64,000 nucleotides of DNA, taken from the NCBI GenBank assembly GCA_964016885.1, contig OZ024757.1, positions 9,858,001-9,922,000 on the forward strand, written 5' to 3'. The notes under the pieces were generated by a model that saw nothing but the letters and a program-made list of their open reading frames with translations, did not search any database and had not been told where the DNA came from. This DNA is from Eledone cirrhosa. Its lineage: Eukaryota. Position numbers and translations under genes: made by a program. Positions 2,458 through 31,654 of the stretch are shown one piece after another (position 1 is the stretch's first letter; each line of letters starts with the position of its first letter).

Positions 2458-2675
2458 GAATGCTATAGTTGACGGAGGCTCGGCTCTGTAAGGTATTGTA
2501 AATTTTGAACGCTATAACAATTGTAAATTGTTAAAACTTTTACCAACTTGTAGACAAAAACACCCTCCTCCTCGTGAGAGGTGTCTTTCTGCCCGTTATT
2601 TGGCCCTTCGGGGTTAAATAACTGCTTATTAGGGTTTTGTGCCCAATATTTAATTTAAACAAAAAAAAAAACAAC

Positions 2676-4759
2676 ATGGCTACGAAAAAGAAATTTCATA
2701 GGTCACTCCCACTCATTCCGTCTTCTTCTTGCTCAATCGTCACTACAGCAGAGAGAAGATTGTCTCTCTCCCTCCCTTCTCTTTCGCAAGCGACGACAGA
2801 AAAGAAAAGTCTCGTGCAAAGCGTGCAAGATTTCTCCACGACGACAACGACGACGAAACAGGTGTGCGGGAAATACGAAAACCCATTTCATTCGTCTGAC
2901 GTCAGGAATAATAGCAGTAGCAACCGTAATAACAACAGCAACAGTGACAATGAAAACAACAGTAGCAGCCGCAACAGCATCACCAGCAGCATAAACAACA
3001 ACAGCATTAGCAGCAGCAACAACAACAACAACCACAGCAATAGCGGCGGCGGCAGTAGTCGTAGTACCTGCAGCAACAACAAAAGTAACAGCAGCTCTGA
3101 CGACAACAACAACAACAGCAGCAAAGAAAATCCAATCTCATTTGCAGGTATCGCGAAGAACCTGGAAACAATCCTCATAACAAATGAGGAATTAGAGGAA
3201 GCGAAGAAGATGGTGACGAAAACGGGACACCGAGCAATCTGCAAGGCAGCGGAAACATTTTTCGAAACCCAACAGCACTGTACGGTCACGTACCGTACAG
3301 TAAGTACAAAATCCCGTAGGGTGGAAAGAGCCACAGAGGCTCAAATACAAAAAGCCTTGGGGTCTGTGTGGCAGCGGAAAACACACATCACCCGAGGCAA
3401 GAAATATGCCACCGTAGACGTACTTTTTGCCACACCCCAGGAGGCAAAGGCTCAATCCATAGTGACCCTAAGGAGCGAGGAAATGGTGTTTGTGCCCTCC
3501 TACTGCGGGCAAAAATTGTGAGGGTCAAACGTACCCACGTCCTCCCCCCGGGATGGCTCCTTCTTGGCTGGCCGCGTCTGTCCTCGTCGGAATCGAGGAC
3601 AAAACAACTGTACTGCAAGTACAGAAAAAAGTAAGAGAAGATTGGGTCGGCACCTCCATTGAGATGTTAATCCAAACCAACCAGGAGTGCATCGAAGCTA
3701 TCTCGGATGTGATAGACTTCGATAACGGCACTCAACTGCCCATAAGTGTTGAGGGCAAACGCCCGCAATGCTTTCGCTGTGGATCGAAGACTCACCTCAG
3801 GGCCTTCTGCAACGAGAAGACCCTGAGAAAGGAGAAACCCCCCCCTCCTTCCGAAACCGGCTTCACGGCTACCAGAAACAGGACAAGCGGCAACCAGGAA
3901 CGATAGGTCCGTGGTACCCATACACACGCCACGGAAATCAAAAACAGCAGCAGCAGTGGAAGTATTAACAACAACAACAACAGCAATACCAAATGCAGCT
4001 GCAACAGAGACTCCACTGCAAACATCACCAACAAGTACAAGTGAAAGACTGGAACTGGTACCCCTCCCCGACCTCACAGAATCAGACATGGAGTGTGAGG
4101 TGGGAGAGGGATGGCAAAAGGTCGTAAGAAGGCACAAACGCAGAAGCAGCACATCGTCGCCTTTGAAAAGGGAGGAAAGAAATGAAAAAAGGGTAAAGTC
4201 TACTGCAAAGAGACTCACAGCAGCAACACCACCAACACCAACACCACCCACACTAGCACCACCATCACCACCGGCGACAACCCCACCGCCAACAACAACA
4301 ACACCTTCAACACCACCACCACAAGCACCAACATCGTAAACACAACAACAAAACGCACACACACAGCAAAAACGACAAGAAAATAGCAGAACCACACCCC
4401 ACTCCCAGAAAAACAAATGCACGGCAATAAATACACACAACAAGAATCTAATGACTTACATAATTGAACACACAGACATTTCACAACACGACTACATAAT
4501 ACCAGCACCAATCAAAACGCCAACTAACATAAGACTGCTAAAAATAGCACAGAAACAATACACAAACATTAAAACGAAATTCCCCAACGCAGTTGGTGAT
4601 TTCAGAGACCTAGGAGGTACTATCAACCGAAGAGTATATTCGGACATACTCATAGAAGAGCCGATGACCAGCCGAAGGGATGATTCAACGGTCCCTTCAC
4701 CAGACGATCAAGTGAAAAGGGATGTAAAAACAATCCCTCCTCTACGAAAAGTACGGTAA
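2676..4759 (+). pseudogene. T1 ORF1 (gag-like nucleic-acid-binding protein), frameshifted
   Basis: Fragments 2637-3521, 3490-3906, 3911-4339 and 4451-4759 are colinear with the intact 700-aa ORF at 17590 and include CFRCGSKTHLRAFC (CX2CX4HX4C). Confidence 0.88.
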
Positions 4760-4794
4760 GTGGTCTTTCCCATCCTTTCCACTCTGTTTTAAAC

Positions 4795-7700
4795 ATGACC
4801 TCACTCAGAATAGGCAGCATAAATGCGCGTGGCCTGGGGTCGTCATGGAAGCAGGTTCACCTGCTCAACGACCTCAGGTTACTAAACATAGATGTAGTGG
4901 CCATCAGCGAGACCAGAATCTCCGAAGCACGGGCCTTCGCACCGATCATCGGCGGCTACGATGTGTACGCATCTCCCAGCCGTCCTGGATCGAGTGGGGG
5001 GGGGGGGGAGTTGCTGTGCTTTTTCGGAGAGGTTTGGATCTCGCCATACGAGCCATCTTCCTGGACCCAGAGGGTAAGTTGGTGGTGCTGGACGTGACCA
5101 GCGGAGACGGGCAAGCTTTCAGGCTAGTGGCCGTCTATGCCCCGACAGGAGCAGGGCGGCCTGATTTCTTCCGGCGTCTGGAGACCTTTCTTGGAACGTC
5201 CCGCTCTTTAGTGTTACTGGGCGACTGGAACGGGATCTTAGATACACGCTGGGACTGTGTGGGATTAGCGGATAGGGGTGGAGGGTGCAAGAGCCTCACC
5301 AACCTGCTCAGGCGTTTTGAACTGTCTGACAGGTACCGATTGGATTTCCGGAATGTGCCAATGTGGACTTGGACAAATCGCATAGGGTCATCCAGATCAT
5401 ATCTAGATAGAGTATTTTGTAGGGAAATAGATAGGTCTAGCATAGGCTGTCCACAATTCAAGATAGTCAGCTACACGGACCACTAATTCGTGATCTGTGT
5501 GCTTGACTTAGATAGGCTTCATAGATGAGGACCCGGCTACTGGAAGCTAAACGCGTCCTTACCAGCCCGCAAGGCCTACAGAGACCGGATTAGCGAACTA
5601 GTTAAGCGGTCGTTGACGGGGGCCATCGTCAACAACAAATGGTGGTTTGCTCTGAAAAGAGCGATTAGAATAGAATCCATTAGGTTTAGTAAGGCTTTAG
5701 CAATAGAGAAAAATAGAGCCGAGGGAGAACTAGTTAGAAAATTAGACGAGGCGCTTAGCAAAGGCATTGCTACCGACGTGCTTGCGGCGAAATTGGCCCT
5801 TGACCAATTCTTCAATGCAAAGCACGAAGGCTGCGTTGTCAGAGCAAGGGTGCGTGCTCTCAGACACGAGCTGACGAAAGCCGTTCAATGGGCCCGAGTG
5901 GCGGAGGCGCGTCGTGGCAACAAAGCCACGATCCGATCTTTGGTGGACCACGACGGGCGCATGCTACTCGATCCCGGGCAAATGTGTGAAGCTTTTCAGC
6001 GACACTTCGCTCAGCTGTTCGGAGGCAGCGGTGGGCCGGGTCGAGGGATGGACTTTAGTGTCTACCTCGACGGACTACCGCGGCTCTCGGCTACTGTGGC
6101 GAAGTGTTGCGAAAGGCCGATAACAGCCGCTGAAGTAAGGGAGGCAATGACTGGCTGTACAAGGGGTAAATCGCCTGGTTTGGATGGTCTGCCCTATGAA
6201 CTTTACGTACAGATGCCAGCCTTGTTCCGAGGCCTCTTGGCGGACGTCTATTGCAACTGGCAACAGAACGGGAGAATTCCCAGTTCTGTGAGTCGAGGAG
6301 CGGTGGCACTGCTGAGAAAGGATCCGAACAAGGGGGATAACATAGATAATTTCCGGCCCATAACTCTGCTAAAACAGAGTTCAAGATTTTGGCCAAGGTG
6401 CTAGCAAAGAGGTTGGCGCTTGTCGTTAGTGGTCTGGTGGGAGAGGCGCAGACATGCGCCATTCCCGACAGATCCATCCACGACAACCTCCACCTTATGC
6501 GATACATCGTAGAGAGGGTAGCTAGGGAACCTGGCACGGGTGGGTCCTTGATCAATTTAGATCAGTCGAAAGCTTTCGATAGGGTCGACCATCGTTACCT
6601 GGCGGCAGTCCTGAAGGCGGCTGGCTTTGGGCCCGTTTCAGAGGCTGGATCGCTGAGAGTGAACGGTGAGAGTGAACGGTCACCTGTCGGAACCGTTCAA
6701 CATCATGCGCTCGGTCCGCCAAGGATGTCCCCTCTCGTCCCTCTTGTACGTATTGACTCTCGAGCCATTACTGCACAAACTGGAGACGTTGAGGGGAGTC
6801 CCGCGCGAACTAGGATGCGGAAAATCCGTGTCAGCATATGCGAACGATGTCACCGTAGTGGTGTCGAACGCCAAACACATCGAGGCGATCGGCACTACAC
6901 TAAGAGAATACGAAGCGGTGACAGGAGCAATGATCAACCAGGAAAAGTCAGTGGGCCTGCAGCTCGGCACCTGGAGATACAGGTCCATGCCGTCCAACAG
7001 CGTCGTCGGATGCTGGACGGACGGACCGGTTAAATTGCTATGGGTCTGGTTCGGTCCGGACCTCCAGACGGACAAAAAGTGGGATGAGGTGACGAGCAGG
7101 GTGGCTTCTCTCACACAGAAATGGGCGGAGAGGAAGCTATCTCTTAAAGGTCGAGCGGAGGTGGCTAACGCGTAGATCGCGTCTGTCATCTGCTACCGCC
7201 TGACCGTCGTACCTTGTCCTAAGCCTCGCCTGACTGCGCTGGAGCGTTTGCTCTTTCGCTTTTTGTGGAAGGGACGCGCTCCGATGGTCAGGCGGTCCAT
7301 CTGTTGTCAACACCCGCTACGTGGAGGGCTGGGCATGCCGTGGCTGATGATGCGCAGGCACGCGCTCAGGCTACGACATCTCCACCTCTTCCTCGACGGT
7401 GATCAGGTGTGGTCGCCGTTTGCTAGACACGTATTTCCCCAGCTCGTTTCCTTGACGGAGCTGCAGTCCTGGGTCAAGCGAAGACCGAGAGGGAGCGCCT
7501 GGAGACTGGAATGTCTTCAGGCGCTCACACCCCTCGACCAATCGGGCAATGTGATCGGTGGAAACTCCACCTCGGCGTTCTATAGAGGACTAGTGGAGGG
7601 GAAGAGCGACGACGTACTTGGGGAACCTCTAGGCGTCGACGAAAATTAACTAGCCAATCTCTTCAGAAGAACTTTCGGGCCAGGGCCTATGGACAACTTC

Positions 7701-8204
7701 CAGAAATCTCTGGCCAGGCAGTGCTACCGAGGAGCCTTGCCAGTTCGGGATAAACTCTACAGGCATGGAGGTGCCGTCACCCGGGCATGTCCGAGATGCG
7801 CGCAGGGCGACGAAACCGTCCTGCATGCACTCGTCCAGTGTCCGAAAATTGCTGACTTGTGGGTTTATGTCGAACACCTGCTGTCGCGTTTAGGACGGAT
7901 CTGGTTATCATCTGAGTCCATCGTAAGGATTGCCCCGCTCTCCTATTTTAGCCGGGAAGGGCAGGCAGTTTTTATCTGTCTGGTGGCCATGGCGAAAGAA
8001 ATAGTATGGTGGACACGTTTGAAAGGGCTGAAGACGAGCACTTACCTATTCGGTGATGCTCTGATTGACTTTTTCAAATTTCATTTGAAAAGGAAAATCA
8101 GAGTAGAGAGGGAAGTGCTCTCTTCCCAGCATTTTGTTGAAAGATGGGTGAGTGAAGCAAGAATGGCCCGAGTGAATGGGCCTACTCTGAGTATATATCT
8201 GTAA
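4795..8204 (+). pseudogene. T1 ORF2 (APE endonuclease, RT, C-terminal CCHC), disrupted
   Basis: APE motifs SINARGL, ISET, GDWN, YLDRV, TDH. RT motifs PGLDGLP, FRPITLL, DQSKAFDRV, RQGCPLS, YAND (YADD mutated). C-terminal CPRCx8Hx4C. Multiple stops and frameshifts. Confidence 0.9.
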
Positions 8205-8443
8205 ATTAAAGATGGAAAACTGGGAGAGGGCACTTACCTTGGTGATCAGGGTCACTGTGGCTTTTTATTGGGCTTTCTCCACAAATGTCCCTCCGAAGTC
8301 TCCCCCCCTATTGGGGAATTTTTTATTGTTATTTTTTGTTACATCCTCTGTTTTTGTTTTTTACACGCAGAAATGCCCATTTGTACCGTCCTGTATTGTC
8401 CTGTACTGTCCTTAATGTCTACTTTATGTAAACCCTTGTGGTT

Positions 8444-8449
8444 AATAAA
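8444..8449 (+). promoter_or_regulatory. AATAAA polyadenylation-like signal a few nt before the T1 3' end (same position in all five Tx1 copies)
   Basis: gttAATAAAgaaatc then (att)n; repeated at about 23374, 29237, 35270 and 36760. Confidence 0.5.
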
Positions 8450-8455
8450 GAAATC

Positions 8456-8485
8456 ATTATTATTATTATTATTATTTTTGTTATT
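8456..8485. repeat. (TTA)n run shared as the tail of T1 (+) and the tail of A3 (-)
   Basis: Tail-to-tail junction: ...gaaatc attattatt...ttatt ccttgaatctcag... Confidence 0.93.
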
Positions 8486-11400
8486 CCTTGAATCTCAGTC
8501 ATTGATGTTGGTTAACATGCCTTTTGAAGCGTTCCGAAAAGCGTGAAGGGGCCGATTTTCTTTAACCATCCCTGGAAACTTTTGGAGATAGTCCCCAGTG
8601 CGCCTATGGCAATCGGGATCACTTTGACTTCATGGCAGTTCCAAATCCTTTTCACCTCCCACTTTAGGTCCTGGTATCGGTTAATTTTCTCCCTCTCCTT
8701 CTCTTGCACTCTCGTGTCGAATGGGCAGGCCACATCCACAATCAGACACGATCTTTTTTCTTTGTCCACAACCACCAGGTCAGGTCTATTGTGTTCCAGT
8801 TTCTTGTCCGTCTGTATCCTAAAATCCCACAGCACCTTCACCTGATCGTTCTCCGTCACCGCCTCTGGCCTATGCTCATACCATTTCTCAGAATGTGGTA
8901 AATTGTTCACTTTTCACAGGTGCCAGTGGATCACCCTGCCCATCACATCATGTCTCCAGCTCTTATAGTGGGTCTGGGCTAGGTGTTTACACTCGGATAC
9001 AATGTGAGCCACAGTCTCCTCTCTCTCTCCACAGATCCTGCACAGTGGGCTAGCCTCCTCCTTGTAAATATGGTGCTTCAACCACTTCGTTTTGAGGGCC
9101 TGCTCCTGCGCAGCCATTAGCATTCCTTCTGTAGCCTTTTTGAAGTCTCCTCTTCTCAGCCAGTTCCATGTCTGTGGATCTCTAAATTCAGTTTTCTCAA
9201 AGAAGGTACTATGAAGGGATTTTCCCTGAAGGCTGCTTTTTCTCCTTGATGTTATTTCCTCCTTGGACATCCCCTGGCCTACTGTCCCCTCCTTCAGTAC
9301 AGTTCTGAGCATTGGCTCCTTACTATCAGTCACGTATTTGTATAGGTTGTTTTTCTCCATCTGAACACAGTCCTCTATGCTGATAAGACCTCTTCCACCC
9401 TCAGATCTCCTTAGGTAGAGTCTATCGACATCACTCCTCTTGTGGAACATGTTGTAGATAGTCAATAACTTCCTAGTCTTCCTATCCATTTCTTTTTGTT
9501 CAGCAACTTTCCATCTCAGAATTCCCGCACTGTACCTAATAATAGACACAGCTCGGGAATTTACTGCGCTTATGGCATTTCTGCTGTTCAGATGTGACTT
9601 CAATACGCTCCTTACTCTCTGAATGTATTCAGTTCTTAACAATTCCTTCATTTTTTTGTTCTTTATGCCATCAGCCTCCAGAACTCCGAAATACTGTATC
9701 CTTCCTCGGTGTCAATTTCCTTTATCATCTCACCTGTTGGTATCTGGATTCCGTTACTTCTGCTCAACCTACCCCTCCTCATCACAATGACTCCACATTT
9801 ACCAACACCAAACTGCATACATATATCACTGCATACATATATCACTGCATTATCAAAACTGTGGTACCTTTTGTCAACCACTCTGGCACCTCACCCGACA
9901 CCAAGCAGTCATTGAACATGGTCGTCAGCTTCGGGTGGAGGGATGTTAAATTTTTAATCCAATACCCCTGCACACCATCTGGGCCTGGTGATTTCCAGTT
10001 GGTTAGTTTTTTGGCCTGCCCCTTAAGAGTTTCAACTGTGATACTCAAATCAGTTTGTTGGTGTGCCTGCTCACCGATCTCCCTCTGTACTGTCTCAATC
10101 CACCCTGCCTGGTCATTATGTCTAACATCCTGCTCCCATATTCCTCTCCAGAATGTTTTAGTTTGTTCCGCCTCAGGGATCAAGTCGTTGCCTCTTTCTT
10201 TCCCCTCAAGCTGTCCAAACAGCATCTTCTGGTTGTTGTCGAACATGCGGTTCTGTTTATACTGACTGACTCTGTTCTCGTATCGCCTGATTTTTTGCAC
10301 TCTTAGCTACAATGCGTTGCTTCAGTTCCTCTATGATAATATTTAGCTTTTTCCTCCTAGTTTTGTACTTTATTTCCAGTCTATTTTTAGTGCCTATGTT
10401 TTTTTAGTGTCCCATTCAGTAGTGACTCAAGCTTTCCTATGTCATTCCTCAACTTTTTGATTTGACCACTCAGTCGTTTCTTCCACCAAGGCTCTGCTCT
10501 TTCTTGTCTGTTGTTTCCTCTCGCTTTTACACCAAGTAGTTTCCTCACCGTATTTGCTGTTGCTTTGAGGATATTGTTGCACTGGTGAAGGCTCCTCGCC
10601 TCAAGGTATGGGATGACTTTGTTTACCTTAGCTGTTGTTTCATTTAACTTTTTCCTGTCTACAAATCTTAGGTTCATAGGTCTCCCACTATCATTGTTCA
10701 ATTCATCTACCACTAAATTTAGGATGTCAACCGAATCTTGTCCTAGCCCGTCAGCATTCATCTCCTCAGTGGCCGTATCTCTGTTCCAGGTATTATTTAT
10801 CTCAGTATTCAGATCATTGTCTGCTTCGGGTGGTTCCTCCGTTCTCTCGACCTCTTCACCTTCATTTCCCTCTGGCTCGTTTGTCTGGTATATTACACCC
10901 TCCATCTCCAAGCTATTCTCTCTGCTCAGTTCCTCCAGTTCCAGCTCGCTTATCCACCCATTATTTCTTATTACCCGAGCCTGCCCGGCCAATTTTTGTT
11001 CATCTAATTTAAATAGACCAAATTCGTTCCAGATGTTATGCATCCGTCACCTATAGCCCCTCTCCTTGGGGTTACTTTTCAGGTAACATTGCATAACAGT
11101 TCTATTCATTTCTTTCGTCCAGTTGGTTCTGGCCCCTTTCCTTCTTCTTCTTCCTCCACCATCAGCAGTATTTGGTTGACAGTCATGTTCCTGCTGCTGA
11201 GCCAGGGAGCACCTGTTGGGTGAGAGTCTGTCACATGACGTTCTAGTCTCCATTTCACCGTTATTCGAACTGTTTAGGTTCGATATTTAAACACTCTTAT
11301 CGAGGATTGTATGGTTACTTAGCCATCTGTGGATTCACCGCCGCCGGTGTTTGCGCCGCTCCACTTGGCGCTTGTGTGGCATTATCACCACGCTGTAGAC

Positions 11401-12202: not shown

Positions 12203-12262
<60 letters not shown>
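12203..12262. repeat. (TTA)n microsatellite, about 20 units
   Basis: Pure TTA run. Confidence 0.97.
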
Positions 12263-12263
<1 letters not shown>

Positions 12264-12536
12264 GGCGGCATTATCGGTAGAGGGTCGGACGCTATGCTTT
12301 GAGGTATAGAGTTACGGCCATTGCCATTCTGAGTTCCAATCCCGCCGAGGTTAACTTTGCCTTTCATCCTTACGGGGTCGATAAAATAAAGTACCAGTAA
12401 TACACTGGTTAATTTCTGGCCTTGTGCCTAAGTTATCCCGCCGAGGTTAACTTTGCCTTTCAACCTTCCAGGGTCGATAGAATAAAGTACCAGTAATGCA
12501 TTGATAGTTGCTGGCCTTGTGCCAAAAGTAGAAACC
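12263..12536 (+). mobile_element. tRNA-headed SINE with a duplicated central domain (Meta-domain-like) and a (TTA)n tail
   Basis: A-box-like TGGCGGCATTATCGG at 12263 and B-box GTTCCAATC at 12333-12341. The body ATCCCGCCGAGGTTAACTTTGCCTTTCA...GGGTCGATA.AATAAAGTACCAGT occurs twice (12339, 12435). Similarity to the MetaSINE core is recalled, not searched. Confidence 0.75.
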
Positions 12537-12558
12537 ATTATTATTATTATTATTATTA
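12537..12558. repeat. (TTA)n run: tail of the SINE (+) and tail of R4 family B (-)
   Basis: attattattattattattatta. Confidence 0.93.
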
Positions 12559-12702
12559 CAGTTCCATTTATCTTGCTTTATGTTCATACGAGTTATCACC
12601 AAGTCACAACCAGTGACCTCAAGAGACAACAAGGTCCGCCATGTTCAAGAAAGAACATACATATTCACACATGCATCTTTAGTGTTTAGACTTGTGATGT
12701 AC

Positions 12703-15700
12703 TTATATTGACAGAATCTTCCTTAGTATATGGGCAGTTCCCATTAGTACTATCTTTTGTATTTCTCCTATACGCGGGTTTCCTGGGATTTGCGATAAGT
12801 AATCATTAGACCCCTTAGGTATCATTCCCAGAGCGCCTACAACCACTGGTATTGTTTTAGTTCTCAATTTCCACATTTTTCCAATTTCTATCTCCAGGTC
12901 CTTATACTTGCTCAATTTTTCAAATGTTTTTATAGATACATTCTTGTCTATTGGAACAGACATATCAATTAGCAGGCATACCCTCTTTTGAAAGTCCTTC
13001 AATATTATATCAGGTCTATTTGCATCTATTTTTCAGTCTGTTTGGATGCTAAAGTTCCACAAGATTGAGATGTGATCTTTTTCAAGTATGGGAGGTGGTT
13101 GATGCTCCCACCAATTCTTTTGATGGGGCAGGTCAAAATGCTTACACATTATCCAATGTATGTATTGTGCAGCTCTGTCATGCCTGTTTAGGTATTCGGT
13201 TGGAGCTATAGGACTGCACATTGAAATTATATGGTCAATGGTCTCTGGTTGTTTTTTGCATACACGGCATAATGGGCTGCACCCATTTTTTATTATGTTG
13301 GCTTGGTAATTTTTTGTTGGCAGACACTGATCTTGTGCCGATATAATCAGTCCTTCAGTCTCCGATTTCAGTCCAGAGGATGCCAACCACTGATGGGTTA
13401 AAGTTTTGTCAACATCAGGATTGTTAGCTTGCTCTGGGTATTTTCCATACAGAGGCTTTTATTGCCATTTCTTAGCCAGTTTCTGTAGCAGTTCTTTCTT
13501 TGCAGTTACTTTTACCTGCTTTGCTTTTTCTGTGTTTTCCATTTCAGCAGTAAATGGGACTTCTGAAATTTGTAGTCCATTACTGTATCTTTGTGCATCT
13601 TTTGTAATGGAATATGATCTTTTGATGCTTTCGTGTTTCAAAATGAGTTTGATCATCCAATCATGTGATTCCCTTAGATATGTAGATAATCCAATTGTTG
13701 CAGTTTTCAACGCAATGTCTAACTGGATTAACCCAGGTCCTCCTTCTTTCCTAGGGAGATATATTCTATCTATGTCTGCCTTAGGGTGATGCATTCTGTG
13801 CATGGTTAAGAATTTTCGAATTTTTGTATCGAGCCTACGGATCTCTGCGCTTGACCAGTTGATGACATTGTAACTGTAGGTTACTACTGGTATGGCAAGC
13901 GTGTTTATGGCATCGATCCTATTCCTTGCATTCAATTCCGTTCTTAAGATTACTCTTACTCTGCGATAACATTCCTTCCTTATCCTTTCACTCATTGTCG
14001 AGTGCTTGATTCCGTCTCCTTCACAAACACCTAGATATTTGTAAGTTTTTTCTTGATCAAGTTCTCTTATCACGTTCCCCCGATCAAGATTAATGTCTGA
14101 ACTCTTCAGCAGCTTTCCTCTGGTGAACGTTGCTTTGGCGCATTTATCTAGTCCAAACTCCATTTTAATGTCATCACTGAACTGCTTCACAGTGGATAAT
14201 AGCCCTTGCAATCGTTCATCATTTTTTGCAAATAGTTTCAGGTCATCCATGTAGAACAGGTGATTAATGGTTTTGTCATAGACTTTATATCCATGTTTTG
14301 TTTCATTGAGCATTTTACTTAATGGTATAAGTGCGATGCAGAATAAAAGCGGTGATAAAGAGTCACCCTGAAAAATTCCACAATTAATATTAACTTCTCC
14401 AGCTTCCAGTGATTTTGTTTCACTATTCAAAAATAGTGTTGTTTTCCATGTCTTCATACTGAATGACAAAAACCTCCTGACAATGGGAAATATTTTGAAA
14501 ATCTCTAAACATTTTTCAATCCAACTGTGTGGCAAACTATCGAATGCTTTTTTATAATCTATCCAAGCAATCGATAGATTTTTGTGTCTATTATGACAAT
14601 CTTCCAGTATCATTTTGTTAACCAGAAGCTGATCCTTACAGCCATATGAGCCTCGTTTACACCCTTTCTGCTCAATGGGAAATAGGTCATTTGTTATCAG
14701 GTGGTCATATGTGTATTCAGTTAGGACTGATGTTAACATTTTATACATTGTGGTCAAGCAAGTTATCGGTCTGTAATTTTTGGGATTGTTTGTCTCATCA
14801 TTCTTCGGAAGCAGGAATGTAATGCCGTTAACTAGCCATGATGGTATCTTTTCTGGCTCCTTAACTATTTTATTGTAAAGTTGGGCTAACAGCTCATGAG
14901 ACTCTGTGAAGGCATTTATCCAAAAGTTTTGTATTTTGTCTTTTCCTGGGGATTTCCATTTGCTGGTTTTTCTTAGAGCCAAGCGCAGCTGTTCAACTGT
15001 TATATTTTCCCATATTTTTTCCTCAAGGTGAGCTGTATCTTTCATTTGTCTGTCTATCCATGGGGCATGTATATTATGAACTTTTTCTTCGGCCCAGATC
15101 TTTTCCCAGAATGTTTGCACTTCCTCCTTGGGTGTTATTGATTTAGCAGTTATTGTTGACTTACCAATTTTTCTGTAGAAGTTTCTTTGGTTGTTTTTGA
15201 ACATATTATTGTCCTTATAGAATCTAGATCGTTTTTCAAAGCGCCTTATACGAGCAGCTTTGGCCGACAATTTTTGCTTGATTATGTCTATCAGCATGTC
15301 TTTGTCACTTGTTGATTTTATACTGTACTTCTTTTTCAATTTTCTAAGTTTAGTTTGTTTAACCTACTTTATAGTTTGTTAAAATTTCTATGTCAGATCG
15401 GAGAAGGTTTATTTGGCGATTGAATTCCTTTGTTTTTTCATTTTCACTCCACATAAGTGAGTGGTGACTTTAGCCGATGCATAATAGAGATGATTTAAAT
15501 CAGTAATGTTTAGTTTGTTTGTGATGATAATGTTTTTGAGAATTATGTTAGTCTTGTGTATTATCGTTTGGTTCTGTTTGGAGTTCTGGATCTTAGGGAG
15601 GGTGTCCCGTTGCCCCATGTCAGATTCTTCCATTTTCGTCCATTCGATCATAATTTCATCCTTCAAGTTGACAAGTTCATTCTCATTCATTTCTTTATCA

Positions 15701-16315
15701 TTTACGATCTCATTATTTTCATTTGGTGTTTCATCTTGAGCATGCAGTCCCTCCACTTTTTCGATCCTTTCTTTAATTTGTTCTGTTGCCAGTGATTCCG
15801 CTCCAACCCTGGGATTCGAAGTGTTACAATTTACCTCGTTTTCACTGACACATGTTTCATTTTCCCTTCGCTGACTTTGTGCTAATAGCTTGATCTGATC
15901 AATTTCTATATCAGTTAGTAACTTTTTTCTTACAATATTCTTCGTATATTGGCTAGTTTGTTACTGTCAATATAGCCTCTGTTTTCGGGATTTTTCTTTT
16001 TCCAGTTGATATATATGTCTGTTCTGTATTCGATGTATTTGATGGGTAGTACATGGCAGTGTAGAAAGCCTCAAGGCCTTCTTTATTATCTTCCCTTGAC
16101 CATTTTTCTCTCTTTTTCTTTGGATTTCTTGGTGGTGAGCATGGAGGGCCAACAGTAGGAGTATTCCGGTTATGGGAGGTCTCCAGCTCCGAAGTGATGG
16201 GAAGGTTTGAACCATTAGCTGATTTTTCGACCCCAGTCTGGTTCCTCTCTGAGGGACGCGGCCCTTTTTTACCCGGGTGACGGCCGATCCGGTATGAGAT
16301 TTTATCATTAGACAT
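12703..16315 (-). pseudogene. Family B ORF (RT, CCHC, RLE) with stops and frameshifts; RT segment open at 13459-15339 (626 aa)
   Basis: ORF fragments 15953-16315, 15409-15756, 13459-15339, 13033-13386 and 12703-13002 are in domain order. Confidence 0.88.
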
Positions 16316-16559
16316 TTACTTTATTTTGTCGCGTGTTATTCTTATCCGCCAAGGGGTAATCATTTCGTGTTACCACTTCTAGAACGAGTGTCAACCAAGT
16401 CTAGAGGGGTCGTTCTCCCCTAGAGACTCAGCTATTCCCCGCCGGCCGCCATCTCGATATTTCTTGGTCACGGGGTTTTCTTTCTGTTGTTTTGTTTTTT
16501 TAAATTGTTAATATCATGAGTGGTTCCTTAATGTGTGCATTGCGTGGCTTAAGAATGAA

Positions 16560-16620
16560 ATTATTAATAATTGTCTCCACTCCAGGTACAAGGCCAGCAA
16601 TCACCCAGTGCATTACAATA
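16560..16620 (-). mobile_element. Degenerate 3' fragment of the same SINE family
   Basis: The reverse complement gtaatgcactgggtgattgctggccttgtacctggagtggagacaattatt resembles 12493-12543 (gtaatgcattgatagttgctggccttgtgccaaaagtagaaaccattatt). Confidence 0.55.
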
Positions 16621-17374: not shown

Positions 17375-17589
17375 GAATGCCATGGTTGACGGAGGCTCGG
17401 CTCTGTAAGGTATAGTAATTTTTAACCGTTAAAACAATTGTAAATTGTTTAAAACTTGAACCAAATTGTTAATAAAGACACCCTCCTCCTCGTGAGAGGG
17501 GTCTTTCTGTCCGTTATTTGGCCCTTCGGGGTTAAATAACCAGTTATTGGGGTTTTGTACCCAATATTCATTTTAAACAAAAAAACAAC

Positions 17590-19692
17590 ATGGCTACGAA
17601 AAAGAAATTTCATACGTCACTCCCACTCATTCCGTCTTCTTCTTCCTCAATCATCACTACAGCAGAGAGAAGATTGTCTCTCTCCCTCCCTTCTTTAAAT
17701 GTGTCTCTCTCCCTCCCTTCTCTTTCGCAAGTGACGAAAGAAAAGAAAAGTCTCGTGCAAAGCGTGCAAGGTTTCTCCACGACGACGACAACAGCGACGA
17801 AACAGGTGTGCGGGAAATACGAAAACCCAGTTCATTCGTCTGATGTCAGGAATAATAGCAGTAGCAGCCGTAATAACAACAGCAACAGTGACAATGAAAA
17901 CAACAGTAGCAGCCGCAACAGCATCACCAGCAGCATAAACAACAACAGCATTAGCAGCAGCAACACCAACAACAACCACAGCAACAGCGGCGGAAGCAGT
18001 AGTCGTAGTACCTGCAGCAACAACAAAAGTACCAGCAGCTCTGACGACAACAACAACAGCAGCAGCAGAGAAAAACCAATCTCATTTGCAGGTATTGCGA
18101 AAAACTTAGAAACAATCCTCATAACAAATGAGGGATTAGAGGAAGCGAAGAAGATGGTGACAAAGACTGGACACCGAGCAATCTGCAAGGCAGCGGAAAA
18201 ATTTTTCGAAACCCAAGAGCACTGTACGGTCACGTACCGTACAGTAAGTACAAAATCCCGTAGGGTGGAAAGAGCCACAGAGGCCCAAATACAAAAAGCC
18301 TTGGGGTCTGTGTGGCAGCGGAAAACGCACATCACCCGAGGCAAAAAATATGCCACCGTAGACGTACTTTTTGCCACACCCCAGGAGGCAAAGGCCCAAT
18401 CAGTAGCGACCCTAAGGAGCGAGGAAATGGTGTTGGTGCCCTCCTACTGTGGGCAAAAAATTGTGAGGGTCAAACTGACCCACGTCCTCCCCGGAATGGC
18501 CCCTTCTTGGCTGGCCGCGTCTGTCCTCGTCGGAATCGAGGACAAAACAACTGTAGTGCAAGTACAGAAAAAAGTAAGAGAAGATTGGGTAGGCACCTCC
18601 ATTGAGATGCTAATCCAAACCAACCAGGAGTGCATGGAAGCTATCCCGGATGTGATAGACTTCGATAACGGCACTCAACTGCCCATAAGTGTTGAGGGCA
18701 AACGCCCGAAATGCTTTCGCTGTGGATCGAAGACTCACCTCAGGGCCTTCTGCAACGAGAAGACCCTGAGAAAGGAGAAAACCCCCCTCCTTCCGAATCC
18801 GGCTCCACGGCTACCAGCAACAGGACAAGCGGCAACCAGGAACGATAGGTCCGTGGCACCCATACCCACTCCACGGAAATCAAAAACAGCAGCAGCAGTG
18901 GAAATATTAACAACAACAACAGCAATACCAAATGCAGCTGCAACAGAGACTCCACTGCAAACATCACCAACAACAACAAGTGAAAGAGTGGAGCTGGTAC
19001 TCCTCCCCGACCTCACAGAATCAGACATGGAGTGTGAGGTGGGAGAGGGATGGCAAAAGGTCGTAAGAAGGCACAAACGCAGAAGCAGCGCATCGTCGCC
19101 TTTGAAAAGGGAGGAAAGAAATGAGAAAAGGGTAAATTCTACTGCAAAGAGACCCACAGCAGCAACACCACCAACACCATCACCACCCACACTAGCACCA
19201 CCATCACCACCGGCGACAACCCCACCGCCAACAACACCTTCAACACCACCACCACAAGCACCAACATCGCAAACACAACAACAAAACACACACACCCAGC
19301 AACAACGACAAGAAAATAGCAGAACCACACCCCACCCCCAGAAAAACAAATGCACGGCAATAAATACACTCAACAAGAAACTAATGACTTACATAATTGA
19401 ACACACAGACATTTCACAACACGACTACATAATACCAGCACCAATCAAAACGCCAACTAACATAAGACTGCTAAAAATAGCACAGAAACAATACACAAAC
19501 ATTAAAACGAAATTCCCCAACGCAGTTGGTGATTTCAGGGACCTAGGAGGAACCATCAATCGAAGAGTATATTCACACATTCTCTTAGAAGAGCCGACGA
19601 CCAGCCGAAGGGACGATTCAACGGTCCCTTCACCAGACGATCAAGTGAAAAGGGATGTAAAAACCATCCCTCCTCTACCAAATGTACGGTAA
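17590..19692 (+). CDS. T2 ORF1, 700 aa gag-like protein with an Asn/Ser-rich N-terminal tract, a CX2CX4HX4C knuckle and a Pro/Thr-rich linker
   Basis: Uninterrupted ORF containing CFRCGSKTHLRAFC, located upstream of the APE-RT ORF. Confidence 0.88.
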   Translation: MATKKKFHTSLPLIPSSSSSIITTAERRLSLSLPSLNVSLSLPSLSQVTKEKKSLVQSVQGFSTTTTTATKQVCGKYENPVHSSDVRNNSSSSRNNNSNSDNENNSSSRNSITSSINNNSISSSNTNNNHSNSGGSSSRSTCSNNKSTSSSDDNNNSSSREKPISFAGIAKNLETILITNEGLEEAKKMVTKTGHRAICKAAEKFFETQEHCTVTYRTVSTKSRRVERATEAQIQKALGSVWQRKTHITRGKKYATVDVLFATPQEAKAQSVATLRSEEMVLVPSYCGQKIVRVKLTHVLPGMAPSWLAASVLVGIEDKTTVVQVQKKVREDWVGTSIEMLIQTNQECMEAIPDVIDFDNGTQLPISVEGKRPKCFRCGSKTHLRAFCNEKTLRKEKTPLLPNPAPRLPATGQAATRNDRSVAPIPTPRKSKTAAAVEILTTTTAIPNAAATETPLQTSPTTTSERVELVLLPDLTESDMECEVGEGWQKVVRRHKRRSSASSPLKREERNEKRVNSTAKRPTAATPPTPSPPTLAPPSPPATTPPPTTPSTPPPQAPTSQTQQQNTHTQQQRQENSRTTPHPQKNKCTAINTLNKKLMTYIIEHTDISQHDYIIPAPIKTPTNIRLLKIAQKQYTNIKTKFPNAVGDFRDLGGTINRRVYSHILLEEPTTSRRDDSTVPSPDDQVKRDVKTIPPLPNVR

Positions 19693-19727
19693 GTGGTCTT
19701 TCCCATCTTTTACACTCTATTTTAAAC

Positions 19728-22700
19728 ATGACCTCACTCAGAATAGGCAGCATAAATGCGCGTGGCTTGGGGTCGTCATGGAAGCAGGGTCACCTGCTCA
19801 ACGACCTCAGGTCACTAAACATAGATGTAGTGGCCATCAGCGAGACCAGAATCTCCGAAGCACGGGCCTTCGCACCGATCTTCGGCGGCTACGATGTGTA
19901 CGCTTCTCCCAGCCGTCCTGGATCGGGTGGAGGAGTTGCTGTGCTTTTTCGGAGAGGTTTGGATCTCGCCATACGGGCCATCTTCCTGGACCCAGAGGGT
20001 AAGCTGGTGGTGCTGGACGTGACCAGCGGAGACGGGCAAGCTTTCAGGCTAGTGGCCCCGACAGGAGCAGGGCGGCCTGATTTCTTCCGGCGTCTGGAGA
20101 CCTTTCTTGGAACGTCCCGCTCTTTAGTGTTAGTGGGCGACTGGAACGGGATCTTAGATGCACGCTGGGACTGTGTGGGATTAGCGGATAGGGGTGGAGG
20201 GTGCAAGAGCCTCACCAACCTGCTCAGGCGTTTTGAACTGTCTGACAGGTACCGATTGGATTTCCCGAATGTGCCAATGTGGACTTGGACAAACCGCATA
20301 GGGTCATCCATATCATATCTAGATAGAGTATTTTGTAGGGAAATAGATAGGTCTAGCATAGGCTGTCCACAATTCAAGATAGTCAGCTACACGGACCACA
20401 AATTCGTGATCTGTGTGCTTGACCTAGATAGGCTTCATAGACGAGGACCCGGCTACTGGAAGCTAAACGCGTCCTTACCAGCGCGCAAGGCCTACAGAGA
20501 CCGGATTAGCGAACTAGTTAAGCGGGCGTTGACGGGGGCCAACGTCAACAACAAGTGGTGGTTTGCTCTGAAAAGAGCGATTAGAATAGAATCGATTAGG
20601 TTTAGTAAGGCTTTAGCAATAGAGAAAAATAGAGCAGAGGGAGAACTAGTTAGAAAATTAGACGAGGCGCTTAGCAAAGGCATTGCGACCGACGTGCTTG
20701 CGGCGAAATTGGCCCTTGACCAATTCTTCAATGCAAAGCACGAAGGCTGCGTTGTCAGAGCAAGGGTGCGTGCTCTCAGACACGAGGGGACGAAAGCCGT
20801 TCAATGGGCCCGAGTGGCGAAGGCGCGTCGTGGCAACAAAGCCACGATCCGGTCTTTGGTGGACCACGACGGGCGCATGCTACTCGATCCCGGGCAAATG
20901 TGTGAAGCTTTTCAGCGACACTTCGCTCAGCTGTTCGGGGGCAGCGGTGGGCCGGGTAGAGGGATGGACTTTAGTGTCTACCTCGACGGACTACCGCGGC
21001 TCTCGGCCACTGACGCGAAGTGTTGCGAAAAGCCGATAACAGCCGCTGAAGTACGGGAGGCAATGTCTGGCTGCACAAGGGGTAAATCGCCTGGTTTGGT
21101 GGGTCTGCCCTATGAACTTTACGTACAGATGCCAGACTTGTACGGAGGCTTCTTGGCGGACATCTACTGCAACTGGCAACAGAACGGGAGAATTCCCAGA
21201 TCTGTGAGCCGAGGAGCGGTGACGATGCTGAGAAAGGATCCGAACATGGAGGATAACATAGATAATTTCAGGCCCATAACACTGCTAAACACAGAGTTCA
21301 AGAATTTGGCCAAGGCGCTAGCAAAGAGGTTAGCGCTTGTCGTTGGTGGTCTGGTGGGAGAGGTGCAGACATGCGCCATTTCCGACAGATCCATCCACGA
21401 CAACCTCCACTTCGTAGAGAGGGTAGCTAGGGAACCAGCCACGGGTGGGTCCTTGATCAATTTAGATCAGTCGAAAGCTTTCGATAGGGTCGACCATCGT
21501 TACCTGGCGGCAGTCCTGAAGGCGGCTGGCTTTGGGCCCGTTTCAGAGGCTGGATCGCTGCCATGCACAGCGACATCTGCTCTGTGGTGAGAGTGAATGG
21601 TCACATTTCGGAACCGTTCAACATCATGCGCTCGGTCCGCCAAGGATGTCTCCTCTCGTACCACTTGTACGTATTGACTCTCGAGCCATTACTGCACAAA
21701 TTGGAGACGTTGAGGGGAGTCCCGTGCGAACTAGGATGCGGAAGATCCGTGTCAGCATATGCGGACGATATCACCGTAGTGGTATCGAACGCCAAACACA
21801 TCGAGGCGATCGGCACTACACTAAGAGAATACGAAGCGGTGACAGGAGCAATGATCAACCAGGAAAAGTCAGTGGGCCTGCAGCTCGCCACCTGGAGAGC
21901 AAGTTCATGCCGTCCAATAGCGTCGTCGGACGCTGGACGGACGGACCGGTTAAATTGCTAGGGGTCTGGTTCGGTCCGGACCTCCAGACAGACAAAAACT
22001 GGGACCAGGTGACGTGCAGGGTGGCTTCTCCCACCTAGAAATGGACGGAGAGGAAGCTATCCCTGAAAGGTCGAGCAGAGGTGGCTAACGCGTACATCGC
22101 GTCTGTCATCTGCTACCGCCTGACCGTCGTACCTTGTCCTAAGCCTCGCCTGACTGCGCTGGAGCGTTTGCTCTTTCGCTTTTTGTGGAAGGGACGCGCT
22201 CCGATGGTCAGGCGGTCCATCTGTTGTCAACACCCGCTACGTGGAGGGCTGGGCATGCCGTGGCTGATGATGCGCAGGCACGCGCTCAGGCTACGACATC
22301 TCCACCTCTTCCTCGACGGTTATCAGGTGTGGTCGCCGTTTGCTAGGCGCGTATTTCCCCAGCTCGTTTCCTTGACGGAGCTGCAGTCCTGGGTCAAGCG
22401 AAGACCGAGAGGGAGTGACTGGAGACTGGAATGTCTTCAGGCGCTCACAGCCCTCGACCAATTGGGCAATGTGATCGGTGGAAACTCCACCTCGGCGTTC
22501 TATAGAGGATTAGTGGAGGGGAAGAGCGACGACGTACTTAGGGAAACTCTAGGCGTCGACGAAAATCAACTAGCCAATCTCTTCGGAAGAAATTTCAGGC
22601 CGGGGCCTATGGACAACTTCCAGAAATCTCTGGCCTGGCAGTGCTACCGAGGAGCCTTGCCAGTTCGGGATAAACTCTACAGGCATGGAGGTGCCGTCAG

Positions 22701-23124
22701 CCGGGCATGTCCGAGATGCGCGCAGGGCGACGAAACCGTCCTGCACGCACTCGTCCAGTGTCCGAAAATTGCTGACTTGTGGGTTTATGTCGAACACCTG
22801 CTGTCGCGTTTAGGACGGATCCGGCTATCATCTGAGTCCATCGTAAGGATTGCCCCGCCCTCCTCCTTTAGCCGGGAAGGGCAGGCAGTTTTTATCTGTC
22901 TGGTGGCCATGGCGAAAGAGATAGTATGGTGGACACGTTTGAAAGGGCTGAAGACGAACACTTACCTCTTCGGTGATGCTCTGATTGACTTTTTCAAATT
23001 TCATTTGAAAAGGAAAATCAGAGTAGAGAGGGAAGTGCTCTCTTCCCAGCATTTTGTTGAAAGATGGGTGAGAGAAGCAAGAATGGCCCGAGTGAATGGG
23101 CCTACTCTGAGTATATATCTGTAA
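19728..23124 (+). pseudogene. T2 ORF2 (APE-RT-CCHC)
   Basis: 19728-21590 (APE and RT N-half), 21563-21961 (YADD) and 22081-23124 (CPRCx8Hx4C). There are frameshifts and a TAG at about 22036. Confidence 0.9.
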
Positions 23125-23383
23125 ATTAAAGGTGGAAAACTGGGAGAGGGCACTTGCCCTGGTGGTCAGGGCCACTGTGGTCTTTTAATGGGCTTTCTCC
23201 ACAAATGTCCCTCGGAAGTCTCCCCCCTATTGGGGAATTTTTCATTGTTATTTTCATTGTTATTTTTGTTACATCCTCTGTTTTTGTTTTTTACACGCAG
23301 AAATGTCCATTTGTACCGTCCTGCATTGTCCTGCACTGTCCTTAATGTCTACTTTATGTAAACCCTTGTGGTTAATAAAGAAA

Positions 23384-23385
<2 letters not shown>

Positions 23386-23439: not shown

Positions 23440-23631
23440 GTCATCGTGAGCTCCGCAAAGGTTCGTTGTTTTCAGTTGTTTCAAATTGCCATTTATGGAA
23501 AATTTTTGTTCTTCGGTGTTTATAAGGTCACATAATTTGCTTTCGGAAAAGGGCACTCAAAAAGATTGGCGCCTTGAGCCCAAAATTTAAACTTTTATAA
23601 TTATCAAACAAAAAATTAGTTTGAAAAAAAC

Positions 23632-25617
23632 ATGGACGACTCACAGCTACACCTGGCTGACAGCCTTCCTCACAAACTAACACCTCACACCGACACCACC
23701 ATTGTAAATATTACTACGTTTGCCAACACTAAAAATATAAGCAGTAGCAATAAATTTAATTTGTCTCATGCATACATTCATTTCCCGCCATTACCACTGA
23801 CTGCAGGTGTTGAAGCCGCCACACCCACCACCACCCCAGCGATAACAGAAACAAAAAAAAATTATCTCGTGACATCGAAATGGATTCAGCTAGAATCGAC
23901 TCTTCCACACCGAACACCACTGACGCCACCACCACATCCACAACTGAAACTAAAAGTAACAATAATAAAAATAACAATAACAACAACAGCAACAACAACA
24001 ATGAGAATAACAACAAACACATCAACACCACCGTGTCGTTTGCCAAATCAGCCAAAAAATGCGAAACAATCGAGGTAACTCAGGAAGAAGTAGATGAAAC
24101 CAAGAGAATGGTAAAGAAAGATGGGTACAGGGTCAGCCCCCCCCCCCCACCTAATAGAAATGGAGCATCGGCGCCTATGCATCGTGTCTTATCGGACGAT
24201 TAATATAAAATCGCGCCGAGTGGAACGGGCATCCGAGTCCCAAATCCAAAAAGCTTTGGGACATGTGTGGGCAAAAAAACCCACATCAGACGTGGGCAGA
24301 AATATGGAATCGTGGACGTGTTCTTTGGAACACCACAGGAGGCCAGAGAGTACTCCATGGCCCCATTAAGAAGCGACGACTTCACACTCGTCCCAAACTA
24401 TTGTGGCCAGAGACTCGTAAAGATCAGGGTGATCCACGTTCCACCAGCCATCGAAATTTCCTGAGAAATGGCTGCCGTCCTCGCCGGCATCGAGGCCAAA
24501 ACTAAAATAATCGAAATAGCAAAATGAAAAGCAGGAGAACTGGTCCGGATCTGGGATGGAGCTCCTGATCCAAGCGGACCAAAAAAGCATTCAGGAAATC
24601 CCAGAGGTAATAGACCTCACTGACGGCAGCTACCTCACGGTAATCGTCGAGGGTATAAGGCCTAGGTGTGTCGTTTGTGGTGAAGGAACCCACCTAAGGG
24701 CTTTCTGCCCTCAGGTTAAAAAGTTGAGGCCACCTCTCTTACCCACCCCAGTAGCTCAACCATCAACACCACCAGCAGCAGAAATGGCAGCAACAACTGT
24801 AGCAGCAACAACAGAAGCAACTGTAGCAGCAGCAACCCCAGCAACAGTAGCAAAACGAACACTACCACCACCCAACGCGCCAGAACTAGCACCAGCGCCT
24901 ACACCATCCACCACGCCACAACCAAAACTAACGCCTGTGGAGGATTTTCCACTCCCCGACCTATCGCAACTGGAGACAGATTGTGACGACGAGGAGTGGA
25001 AAACAGTATCAGGAAAAAAGAAAAAAGGAAAAGAAGCAAAAAAAGAAAAAAAGAAAAAGAAGCCTAAAAAGAAAAAAATCCTCTTCCTTCCCCCTCCAAA
25101 AACAAAACACGGAGAGAAATAAATAAACTATCAAACAAAAAAAGTTAGGACAGCTATGCCACCATCCACACCAGCATGACCAACCCCATCACCACAAACA
25201 CCAACACCATCACCATCATTAACCCCAACACCACCATCACCAACACCACAAAAGTCACCAAAAAGCGAAACAGAAACAAACCCACCACAAACGCAATCAA
25301 AACAAAACAACCAAAACTATACACACTACACAGAATTGCATTTGAACAACAACCAATTACTACACTACATCCAACACAACACCAGAACCACAGAAAAAGA
25401 ATACATAACACCCCAAAAGTTCACACAACCTACACACATAAAAATCACTCGCATCACACAGAAAACGTACAAGACACTAAAACAAAAATTTCACAAAGAC
25501 ATCGGAGACTTCCGACAAGCACTTTCCAGGAGGATTTATAAGGACATCCTTCCGGAGGAGGCCAGAAGCAGTGAAAAGGATGGAGAAACCATCCTTTCTC
25601 TACGAGAAGTAAGGTAA
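23632..25617 (+). pseudogene. Alternative ORF1 (type B), frameshifted
   Basis: KSRRVERASESQIQKALGHVW, KTHIRRGQKYGIVDVFFGTPQEA and CVVCGEGTHLRAFC are homologous to, but clearly diverged from, type A ORF1. Confidence 0.85.
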
Positions 25618-25651
25618 GTGGTCTTTCCCATCTTTTCAACTCCATGTCAAC

Positions 25652-28600: not shown

Positions 28601-29010
28601 ATAAACTCTACACGCATGGAGGTGCCGTCAGCCGGACATGTCCGAGATGCGCGCAGGGCGACGAAACCGTCCTGCACGCACTCGTCCAGTGTCCAAGAAT
28701 TGCTGACTTGTGGGTTTATGTGGAACACCTGCTGTCGCGAGTAGGACAGATCCGGCTATCAGCTGAGTCCATCGTGAGGATTGCCCCGCCCTCTTCCTTT
28801 AGCCGGGAAGGGTAGGCAGTTTTTATCCGTCTGGTGGCCATGGCGAAAGAGATAGTATGGTGGACACGCTTGAAAGGGCTGAAGACGAGCACTAACCTCT
28901 TCGGTGATGCCCTGATTGACTTTTTCAAATTTCATTTGAAAAGGAAAATCAGAGTAGAGAGGGAAATGCTAGCTTCCCAGCATTTTGTTACTCTGAGTAT
29001 GTGTCTGTAA
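25652..29010 (+). pseudogene. T3 ORF2 (APE-RT-CCHC), heavily disrupted
   Basis: MTSLRIGSINAR..., GDWN, YADD and CPRC...HALVQC, with many stops and indels. Confidence 0.88.
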
Positions 29011-29248
29011 ATTAAAGGTGGAAAACTGGCACTTGCCTTGGTGGTCAGGGTCACTGTGGCCTTTTAATGGGCTTTCTCCACAAATGTCCCTCGGAAGTCT
29101 CCCCCCTATTGGGGAATTTTTCATTATTTTTTTTATTACATCCTTTTTTTATTTTACACGCAGAAATGCCCATTTGTACCGTCCAGTATTGTCCTGTACT
29201 GTCCTTAATGTCTACTTTATGTAAACCCTTGTTGTTAATAAAGAAAGC

Positions 29249-29250
29249 AC

Positions 29251-29287
<37 letters not shown>
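29249..29287. repeat. (TTA)n spacer between T3 and T4
   Basis: TTA run. Confidence 0.95.
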
Positions 29288-29858: not shown

Positions 29859-29893
<35 letters not shown>

Positions 29894-31620: not shown

Positions 31621-31654
31621 GTTGTCTTTCCCATATTTTCCCATCCATTTCAGC

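Follow-up and report, generated by a model that had tools for sequence, protein, structure and literature searches.

A short 3'-terminal hairpin suggests a probable LINE-SINE partnership between Tx1-lineage elements and an octopod SINE

An octopod tRNA-like SINE of Eledone cirrhosa ends in a small hairpin that recurs at the 3' ends of neighbouring Tx1-like LINEs and of Tx1 relatives from another host. We consider it likely that the SINE captured its 3' tail from a Tx1-lineage LINE and that the hairpin acts as a recognition signal in trans. The hairpin is short but well controlled, and the data suggest a probable stringent-type LINE-SINE partnership in the Tx1 group; such tail pairing has rarely been seen for the L1/Tx1 group of elements. 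The hairpin is present in all three groups of elements, where it lies at the 3' end and covaries in its stem; the Tx1 elements concerned fall into one clade, and the SINE and its Tx1 neighbours have the ATT target and the orientation within it in common.

Organization of the window

The window is the whole 64-kb stretch of DNA analysed here, and all positions refer to it. Positions 1-38550 form a nest of non-LTR retrotransposons sitting in TTA repeats, and positions 38550-64000 consist of a 16-bp satellite. This satellite spans at least 25 kb, is G-rich and C-poor, and comprises about 1608 copies with 89% matches; it directly adjoins a 5'-truncated R4/Dong copy, and its strand bias is telomere-like. 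Five plus-strand Tx1-like copies, with 3' ends at 8455, 23385, 29251, 35281 and 36771, and two R4/Dong-like families were annotated in the nest:

2458..8455, plus strand: Tx1 copy 1, with ORF1 (CCHC knuckle) and ORF2 (APE-RT-zinc finger), broken
8431..8443, plus strand: 3' hairpin of Tx1 copy 1, AACC-CTTGT-GGTT, followed by AATAAA and (ATT)n
17375..23385, plus strand: Tx1 copy 2, hairpin at 23361-23373
23440..29251, plus strand: Tx1 copy 3, with another 5' UTR and ORF1; hairpin at 29224-29236, closing pair broken
29288..35281, plus strand: Tx1 copy 4, hairpin at 35257-35269 with loop TTTGT
35309..36771, plus strand: Tx1 copy 5, internally deleted; hairpin at 36747-36759 intact
8483..11330, minus strand: R4/Dong-like family A, with RT, zinc finger and restriction-like endonuclease motif; the 5' UTR may reach 12202
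12559..16560, minus strand: R4/Dong-like family B, with RT, zinc finger and restriction-like endonuclease motif; 5' limit uncertain

Pfam assigned Exo_endo_phos, RVT_1 and zf-RVT domains to the Tx1 ORF2, giving the order APE-RT-zinc finger. Its best PDB match is human L1 ORF2p (E 1e-23), the nearest solved relative, and its closest named relatives are from Argonauta hians (55% and 70%); the ESM Atlas returned only generic EN/RT clusters for the Tx1 protein. ORF1 carries a CCHC zinc knuckle, CX2CX4HX4C, at 3769, 18712 and 24667, and so do two relatives from outside the window described below (L001 and L008). An ORF1 with such a knuckle is a feature of the Tx1 clade. By architecture and target preference the LINE fits the Tx1 clade; the RT tree described below lacks named Tx1L, Keno, Kibi or Koshi references.

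Two of the copies are rearranged. Copy 5, flanked by ATT at either end, consists of the initial 1.1 kb of the element and its final 340 nt, which meet at a C run (about 36432); it is a candidate non-autonomous derivative. Copy 3 combines, at 23440-25570, a different 5' UTR and an ORF1 with its own CCHC knuckle with an ORF2 that is 98% identical in RT to that of copy 2, as would result from a 5' module exchange between Tx1 families.

The R4/Dong elements have a single ORF and a sense (TAA)n end, and their best PDB matches are R2 proteins; the clade label was given without a tree. The coding regions of families A and B are only about 60% alike. Upstream of both lie paralogous non-coding segments (11826-12072 and 16858-17336; 73-88%), representing either a shared 5' UTR module or a duplicated flank.

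Structure and copies of the SINE

The SINE lies between a TTA run and the 3' end of R4/Dong-like family B, and a fragment of it was found further downstream:

12203..12263, plus strand: (TTA)20 run 5' of the SINE, target repeat
12264..12536, plus strand: SINE, with degenerate tRNA-like head, body, and quasi-dimeric duplication of body and tail
12264..12346, plus strand: tRNA-like head, with pairing ends (GGCGG/CCGCC), a B-box-like GTTCCAATCC at 12333 (1 mismatch) and a degenerate A box
12339..12431, plus strand: unit 1, made up of body and truncated tail; 93 nt align with unit 2 at 88% identity
12418..12428, plus strand: unit 1 hairpin GGC-CTTGT-GCC, with 3 Watson-Crick pairs
12435..12536, plus strand: unit 2 (body and complete tail); the repeat of unit 1 spans 12435-12526
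12512..12524, plus strand: terminal hairpin TGGC-CTTGT-GCCA; the loop ends 16 nt before the ATT tail
12537..12558, plus strand: (ATT)7 tail of the SINE; R4/Dong family B shares it, back to back, as its (TAA)n end
16572..16616, minus strand: 45-nt SINE tail, truncated at the 5' end and flanked by ATTATT at either end; 75% over 44 nt (E 0.004); its hairpin has a mutated closing pair

With 273 nt plus (ATT)7, the element is short and non-coding and consists of head, body and simple-repeat tail, in agreement with this part of the SINEBase definition. The definition also asks for Pol III boxes, for 60% or more identity to a tRNA, 5S or 7SL RNA across 60 nt, and for an interspersed family of 100 or more copies. 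In the head ARAGORN detected 0 tRNA genes, and there was no Rfam tRNA match at E up to 10. The octopus SINEs OK, OR1 and OR2, reportedly described by Ohshima and Okada in 1994, resemble it in octopod host and tRNA-like head. Unit 2 begins at the end of the B box and the two units differ by 12%, which would fit an old duplication, or else a template jump from one copy to another. Positions 12537-12558 constitute one repeat that is used by two LINE clades in opposite orientations, as the ATT tail of the SINE and as the TAA end of family B.

In addition to the two insertions in the window, further copies of the SINE were recognized as antisense translations in two unnamed proteins, P0013 and P0015, which together hold three copies. 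These retain the motif FWHK[AG] (FWHKA and FWHKG) in the same frame as the tail in the window, where it encodes the loop and the 3' arm of the hairpin. Because the motif is kept in two other copies, loop and 3' arm are a feature of the SINE family. P0013 and P0015 were the only matches of a longer-protein profile search, while a third match of the antisense protein search, P0014, was dropped as an unrelated repeat protein. A word-index protein search with the antisense SINE frame yielded none, the SINE pattern gave 0 matches in the genome contig collection, and blastn against plasmids and phages gave no match. For CORE, Deu and Meta SINEs and octopus OR1, OR2 and OK, a motif search of published supplements gave 7-mer matches only. 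A second tail variant of this SINE, closer to the end of the window Tx1, presumably exists in octopus genomes; we treat this as a lead only.

The match between SINE and Tx1 3' ends

The initial annotation had drawn attention to a common 7-8-7 layout of the two ends. Both ends read as it described: Tx1 copy 1 terminates in CCTTGTG-GTTAATAA-AGAAATC-(ATT)6 (8434-8455) and the SINE in CCTTGTG-CCAAAAGT-AGAAACC-(ATT)7 (12515-12536). The orientation it reported was likewise confirmed, SINE and Tx1 ending in sense (ATT)n, in contrast to the R4/Dong elements with their sense (TAA)n. In an ungapped, 3'-anchored alignment the tails of SINE and Tx1 copy 1 are identical at 15 of 22 positions. The comparison covered the three LINE families in the window, and three R4/Dong 3' ends matched the SINE tail at 7-9 of 22 positions, scoring 2 versus 8 for Tx1. 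Mobilization of the SINE by an R4/Dong element of the same cluster is therefore scarcely credible: the 12537-12558 repeat is common to family B and the SINE, and Dong-R4 elements of O. vulgaris are active according to the available part of PMC13282606, but in both families tail mismatch and the missing CTTGT hairpin, together with the opposite repeat sense, largely refute R4/Dong as the partner.

The Tx1-SINE anchored score was reached by 118 of 200,000 shuffles of the 60-nt tail, and by 507 of 200,000 when shuffling was local; 192 of 76,980 window positions, true homologues included, also reached it. The sequence match alone (p about 0.0006-0.003) is modestly beyond chance and would by itself be a weak lead, and the similarity has no useful upstream extension (16/30 and 20/40). 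The exact layout is present in three of the five Tx1 3' ends. The copy ending at 35281 departs from it by a loop change, and the copy ending at 29251 by a G-to-T change and 4 extra bases. For the minus-strand fragment at 16572-16616, which had been said to keep the layout, this holds for the spacing; its last heptamer agrees with the SINE at 4/7 and with Tx1 at 3/7 positions, and the closing pair is broken. The 8-nt spacer was rejected as a neutral ruler, because its first bases form the 3' arm of the hairpin stem and because it overlaps AATAAA in Tx1.

A common hairpin near the 3' end

The heptamer CCTTGTG is composed of C, CTTGT and G, the closing pair and the loop of a predicted hairpin. 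In Tx1 the stem reads AACC/GGTT, in the SINE TGGC/GCCA, and in both tails the loop starts 21 nt from the end. In each tail the CTTGT-loop hairpin is the only one with at least 4 Watson-Crick pairs in the last 40 nt. This shared hairpin was reproduced by 142 of 2,000,000 shuffles (p about 7e-5), and it was met at 28 of 76,980 window positions, all of which lie at the SINE tail or at three Tx1 tails. Homology at the level of the hairpin is very short, 11-14 nt with stems of 3-5 pairs, and the closing pair is broken in two of the eight hairpins in the window. When the whole SINE tail was folded, the pairing probability of the hairpin dropped to 0.28 or 0.65, depending on the segment chosen.

AATAAA adjoins the hairpin in every Tx1 element that has the hairpin, and it is absent from the SINE. 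This bears on the alternative that the tail is Tx1-derived but its hairpin serves RNA 3'-end processing or stability, mobilization being relaxed and mediated by the (AUU)n tail, as in the poly(A)-tailed SINEU/Tx1-Mar system. Apart from the proximity to AATAAA, such a role would agree with the position of Tx1 in the L1 group, in which tail sharing is rare (3/58 pairs; PMC3747384), and with human L1 ORF2p being the nearest solved relative. Yet the SINE, devoid of AATAAA, kept the hairpin in both units and in two other copies, and a conserved loop on a varied stem is the pattern of stringent-type signals. Because the SINE lost AATAAA and kept the hairpin, the latter fits a retrotransposition signal more than a polyadenylation signal, and we regard a purely processing-related function as improbable.

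The hairpin in Tx1 relatives of other hosts

An RT alignment, run against prokaryote genome records, retrieved 77 loci of eukaryote-type retrotransposons, which represent host DNA binned in MAGs. Sixty-two of these, all from one record, are 42-45% identical to the query (about 50% in RT) and fall with the octopod Tx1s into one 100/100 clade, in a tree of 20 of the 77 loci from which P0003 and P0004 were left out for low coverage, which was built without a true outgroup, L1 outgroup or named references, and in which the long branches of P0011, P0009, L062 and L063 were flagged. The other 15 loci are 27-33% identical, and several adjoin U1 or U2 snRNA genes, as do the next relatives of the clade (32-36%).

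Both sets of loci have peculiar surroundings. The 62 loci (L001-L060, L064 and L067; contigs CAXXMW0100000xx) belong to a species-representative MAG, whose contigs of up to 94 kb hold many head-to-tail eukaryotic Tx1 copies with a period of about 6.5 kb and variable 5' ends. No poly(A) or microsatellite separates the copies in the loci read, and a second covarying hairpin precedes AATAAA. These contigs are host contamination, and their arrangement recalls telomeric retrotransposon arrays. In other MAGs, L063, L065, L069, L070 and L072-L075 are Tx1-like elements next to U1 or U2 snRNA genes; in some of them the terminal poly(A) runs into U2-like sequence (two, Keno-type) or into U1-like 5' sequence.

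The hairpin GGC-CT(T/C/A)GT-GCC was found in 60 of the 62 sister-clade loci, about 25-35 nt before AATAAA at the end of the element, and in the two loci lacking it the contig stops short, 291 and 6 nt downstream. Two families, separated by about 0.9 substitutions per site, make up these loci; their 3' UTRs can otherwise hardly be aligned. They have the second hairpin and no ATT tail. Outside the clade, the hairpin is absent from the visible 3' ends of L061, L063, L069, L072, L074 and L075, and the 3' UTR is incomplete in L065, L068, L076 and L077. Since several of the non-clade loci lack a complete 3' UTR, absence is firm only for those with a visible 3' end.

The SINE hairpin matches those of the sister-clade Tx1s at 11/11, 13/13 (unit 1 versus L003) and 13/14 positions, compared to only 7 contiguous bases for the window Tx1. 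Allowing at most one mismatch, the SINE 11-mer occurs 69 times in the 1.23 Mb of loci, 65 times on the sense strand within 50 nt of AATAAA. Conversely, a search of the 64-kb window for the invariant core of the outgroup hairpin gave exact matches in the two SINE units, one with 1 mismatch in the SINE fragment, and no others. Because the sister Tx1s carry the hairpin in 60 of 62 cases and the core is confined to SINE tails in the window, the hairpin is a feature of the Tx1 lineage from which the SINE tail probably derives, and it appears to be older than the SINE. The reverse transfer, with Tx1 taking its tail from the SINE, was ruled out, as the sister families of another host have the hairpin.

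In the 14 hairpins compared, 84% of the cells are paired, and four of the five pairs show double-sided changes. Covariation was 0.39, compared to 0.13 after shuffling and at most 0.15 in slid controls (n=14); for pairs and types the shuffle counts were 27/500 and 51/500. The double-sided changes amount to few independent events, because they mostly reflect one contrast, window Tx1 versus the rest. A covariance model trained on the outgroup only (R2) placed the SINE units second and third of 8, short of significance (E 0.13 and 0.97) and below a chance hit, and it missed all five window Tx1 tails. Another model (R1) found all 8 window hairpins, which is not evidence because six of them had been used to train it and the remaining two are copies nearly identical to these. 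Applied to 14 of the 15 non-clade loci (L071 was left out as a near copy of L070), R1 gave nothing under E 0.05.

The same data bear on a tail originating from another LINE clade, RTE, CR1 or L2, all of which are abundant in octopus, with the likeness to Tx1 due to chance or to convergence on a stable pentaloop. Most known SINE tails come from CR1, L2 and RTE (PMC3747384), RTE and CR1 families are active in Octopus vulgaris as far as the accessible portion of PMC13282606 tells, and the sequence match with the window Tx1 alone has a p of about 1e-3, the tails compared being those of Tx1 and R4/Dong elements. This origin requires two coincidences, namely the same loop, distance and ATT tail as in octopod Tx1 and, furthermore, an exact match of 11-13 nt to the 3' hairpin of Tx1 sister families, and we judge it improbable.

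Origin of the tail and a model of mobilization

The claim that this Tx1 lineage mobilizes the SINE through 3'-end recognition is borne out in part: the hairpin, its compensated stem and its conservation in distant Tx1s support origin of the tail in the Tx1 lineage and recognition, but not the particular family in the window as direct donor. The SINE has its stem in common with the outgroup; with octopod Tx1 it shares the 16-nt spacer, the ATT tail and an AGAAA-like end. As it keeps the G-C stem of the outgroup, its tail was probably donated by an earlier octopod family, or a sister one, and not by exactly the window Tx1.

Capture of a Tx1-lineage tail by the SINE could thus have proceeded from an octopod Tx1 with a compact end (16 nt from loop to ATT), ATT-targeting and still equipped with a G-C stem; the stem of the window family would later have been altered by compensatory substitutions. 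A C-CUNGU-G pentaloop hairpin near the 3' end would constitute the signal. By analogy with zebrafish L2, the LINE ORF2 protein would most likely bind this hairpin of the SINE RNA in trans, nick a (TTA)n repeat and prime reverse transcription at the (AUU)n tail, and the resulting insertions would have ATT on both sides and the Tx1 orientation. In zebrafish L2, a stem swap is tolerated, and loop changes or an unpaired stem abolish retrotransposition (PMC4176376). In this model the hairpin would fold in vivo, be bound by ORF2p and support trans-mobilization. If recognition is loop-specific, the window Tx1 family could still mobilize the SINE.

Comparison with known LINE-SINE pairs

The SINE and Tx1 show the traits of a stringent-type pair: a shared 3' end, albeit a short one next to those of classic pairs, a stem-loop with compensatory changes, and a common target and orientation, the target being assessed on a small sample. 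The eel pair UnaL2/UnaSINE1 and the zebrafish elements ZfL2-1 and ZfL2-2 are similar in that a hairpin whose loop is conserved and whose stem can be exchanged stands at the 3' end, before a tail of short repeats (PMC4176376). They differ in that the LINEs are of the L2 clade, function was demonstrated in an assay, and the eel LINE and SINE have a conserved tail in common, whereas in the window the LINE is Tx1-like, 11-22 nt are shared and the function is putative.

Table 1 of PMC3747384 comprises 58 LINE-SINE pairs, with no Tx1 and no mollusc; the SINE partners sharing tails are mostly CR1, L2 and RTE. Three pairs are in the L1 group, none from animals, namely ZmSINE2 and ZmSINE3 with LINE1-1_ZM (maize/sorghum; monocot L1 lineage) and Chlamydomonas SINEX-3 with L1-1_CR. 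The maize pair also has a hairpin with conserved loop and compensated stem, according to the section of PMC3472496 available, but these plant or algal L1s share about 50-80 nt with their SINEs and end in poly(A) or (T)n. Crocodilian SINEU has, like the SINE described here, been assigned to Tx1 machinery with a common target preference (Kojima 2015, PMC4494074). In contrast, that assignment was made by target, age and 5' heads, the heads are derived from snRNA and the tails are poly(A), and the accessible text describes no shared 3' tail or hairpin.

In O. vulgaris, SINEs make up 11.6% of the genome, and L1-Tx1 (13 families), Dong-R4, CR1 and RTE have been recently active; the available text of PMC13282606 names no partner LINEs for the SINEs. 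In the literature we found no description of a Tx1-octopus SINE pairing or of the hairpin, which may be annotated in Repbase, SINEBase, or the octopus papers of 1994 and 2015. If true, the presence in an animal Tx1 lineage of a 3' hairpin that is conserved and covaries would support stringent recognition as the ancestral state of the L1 group, and octopus SINEs would gain a candidate mobilizer; the hairpin also offers an 11-nt target for a direct test. More tentatively, and at somewhat less than even odds in our estimation, a Tx1 lineage within the usually relaxed L1 group may employ a stringent C-CUNGU-G hairpin, kept across hosts about 1 RT substitution per site apart, as the engine of octopus SINE expansion, with the tail variants of the SINE recording successive Tx1 families that differ in the stem and have the loop in common.

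Insertion into ATT repeats

All five Tx1 copies bearing a 3' end and both SINE insertions are flanked by ATT repeats on both sides, in the same sense and opposite to R4/Dong, and the 5' junction of the Tx1 copies is ATT|G in 5/5 cases. Insertion into a simple repeat in one fixed orientation is also known from Dong/R4 and from the microsatellite-targeting Tx1 elements Kibi, with (TC)n, and Koshi, with (TTC)n, compared to which the target of the window Tx1 is (ATT)n. As the sister families in L001-L060 have no ATT tail, this target appears to be specific to the octopod branch. The target evidence supports the pairing of Tx1 and SINE and does not prove it, because pairing of tail and target alone could give the same pattern.

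It had been proposed moreover that the Tx1-SINE pair seeds new TTA microsatellites genome-wide. This part of the initial annotation found no support: ATT on both sides in 7/7 cases implies that the insertions land in and split existing repeats, so that existing runs are multiplied and de novo birth is unsupported, and a target duplication would not account for a run as long as the 60 nt found 5' of the SINE. Every insertion does bring an (ATT)n tail, and the SINE's own tail became the landing site of an R4/Dong copy. Seeding, which is compatible with the other readings, is unlikely in our view. The 45-nt fragment sits in only two ATT units, which suggests that very short seeds may suffice.
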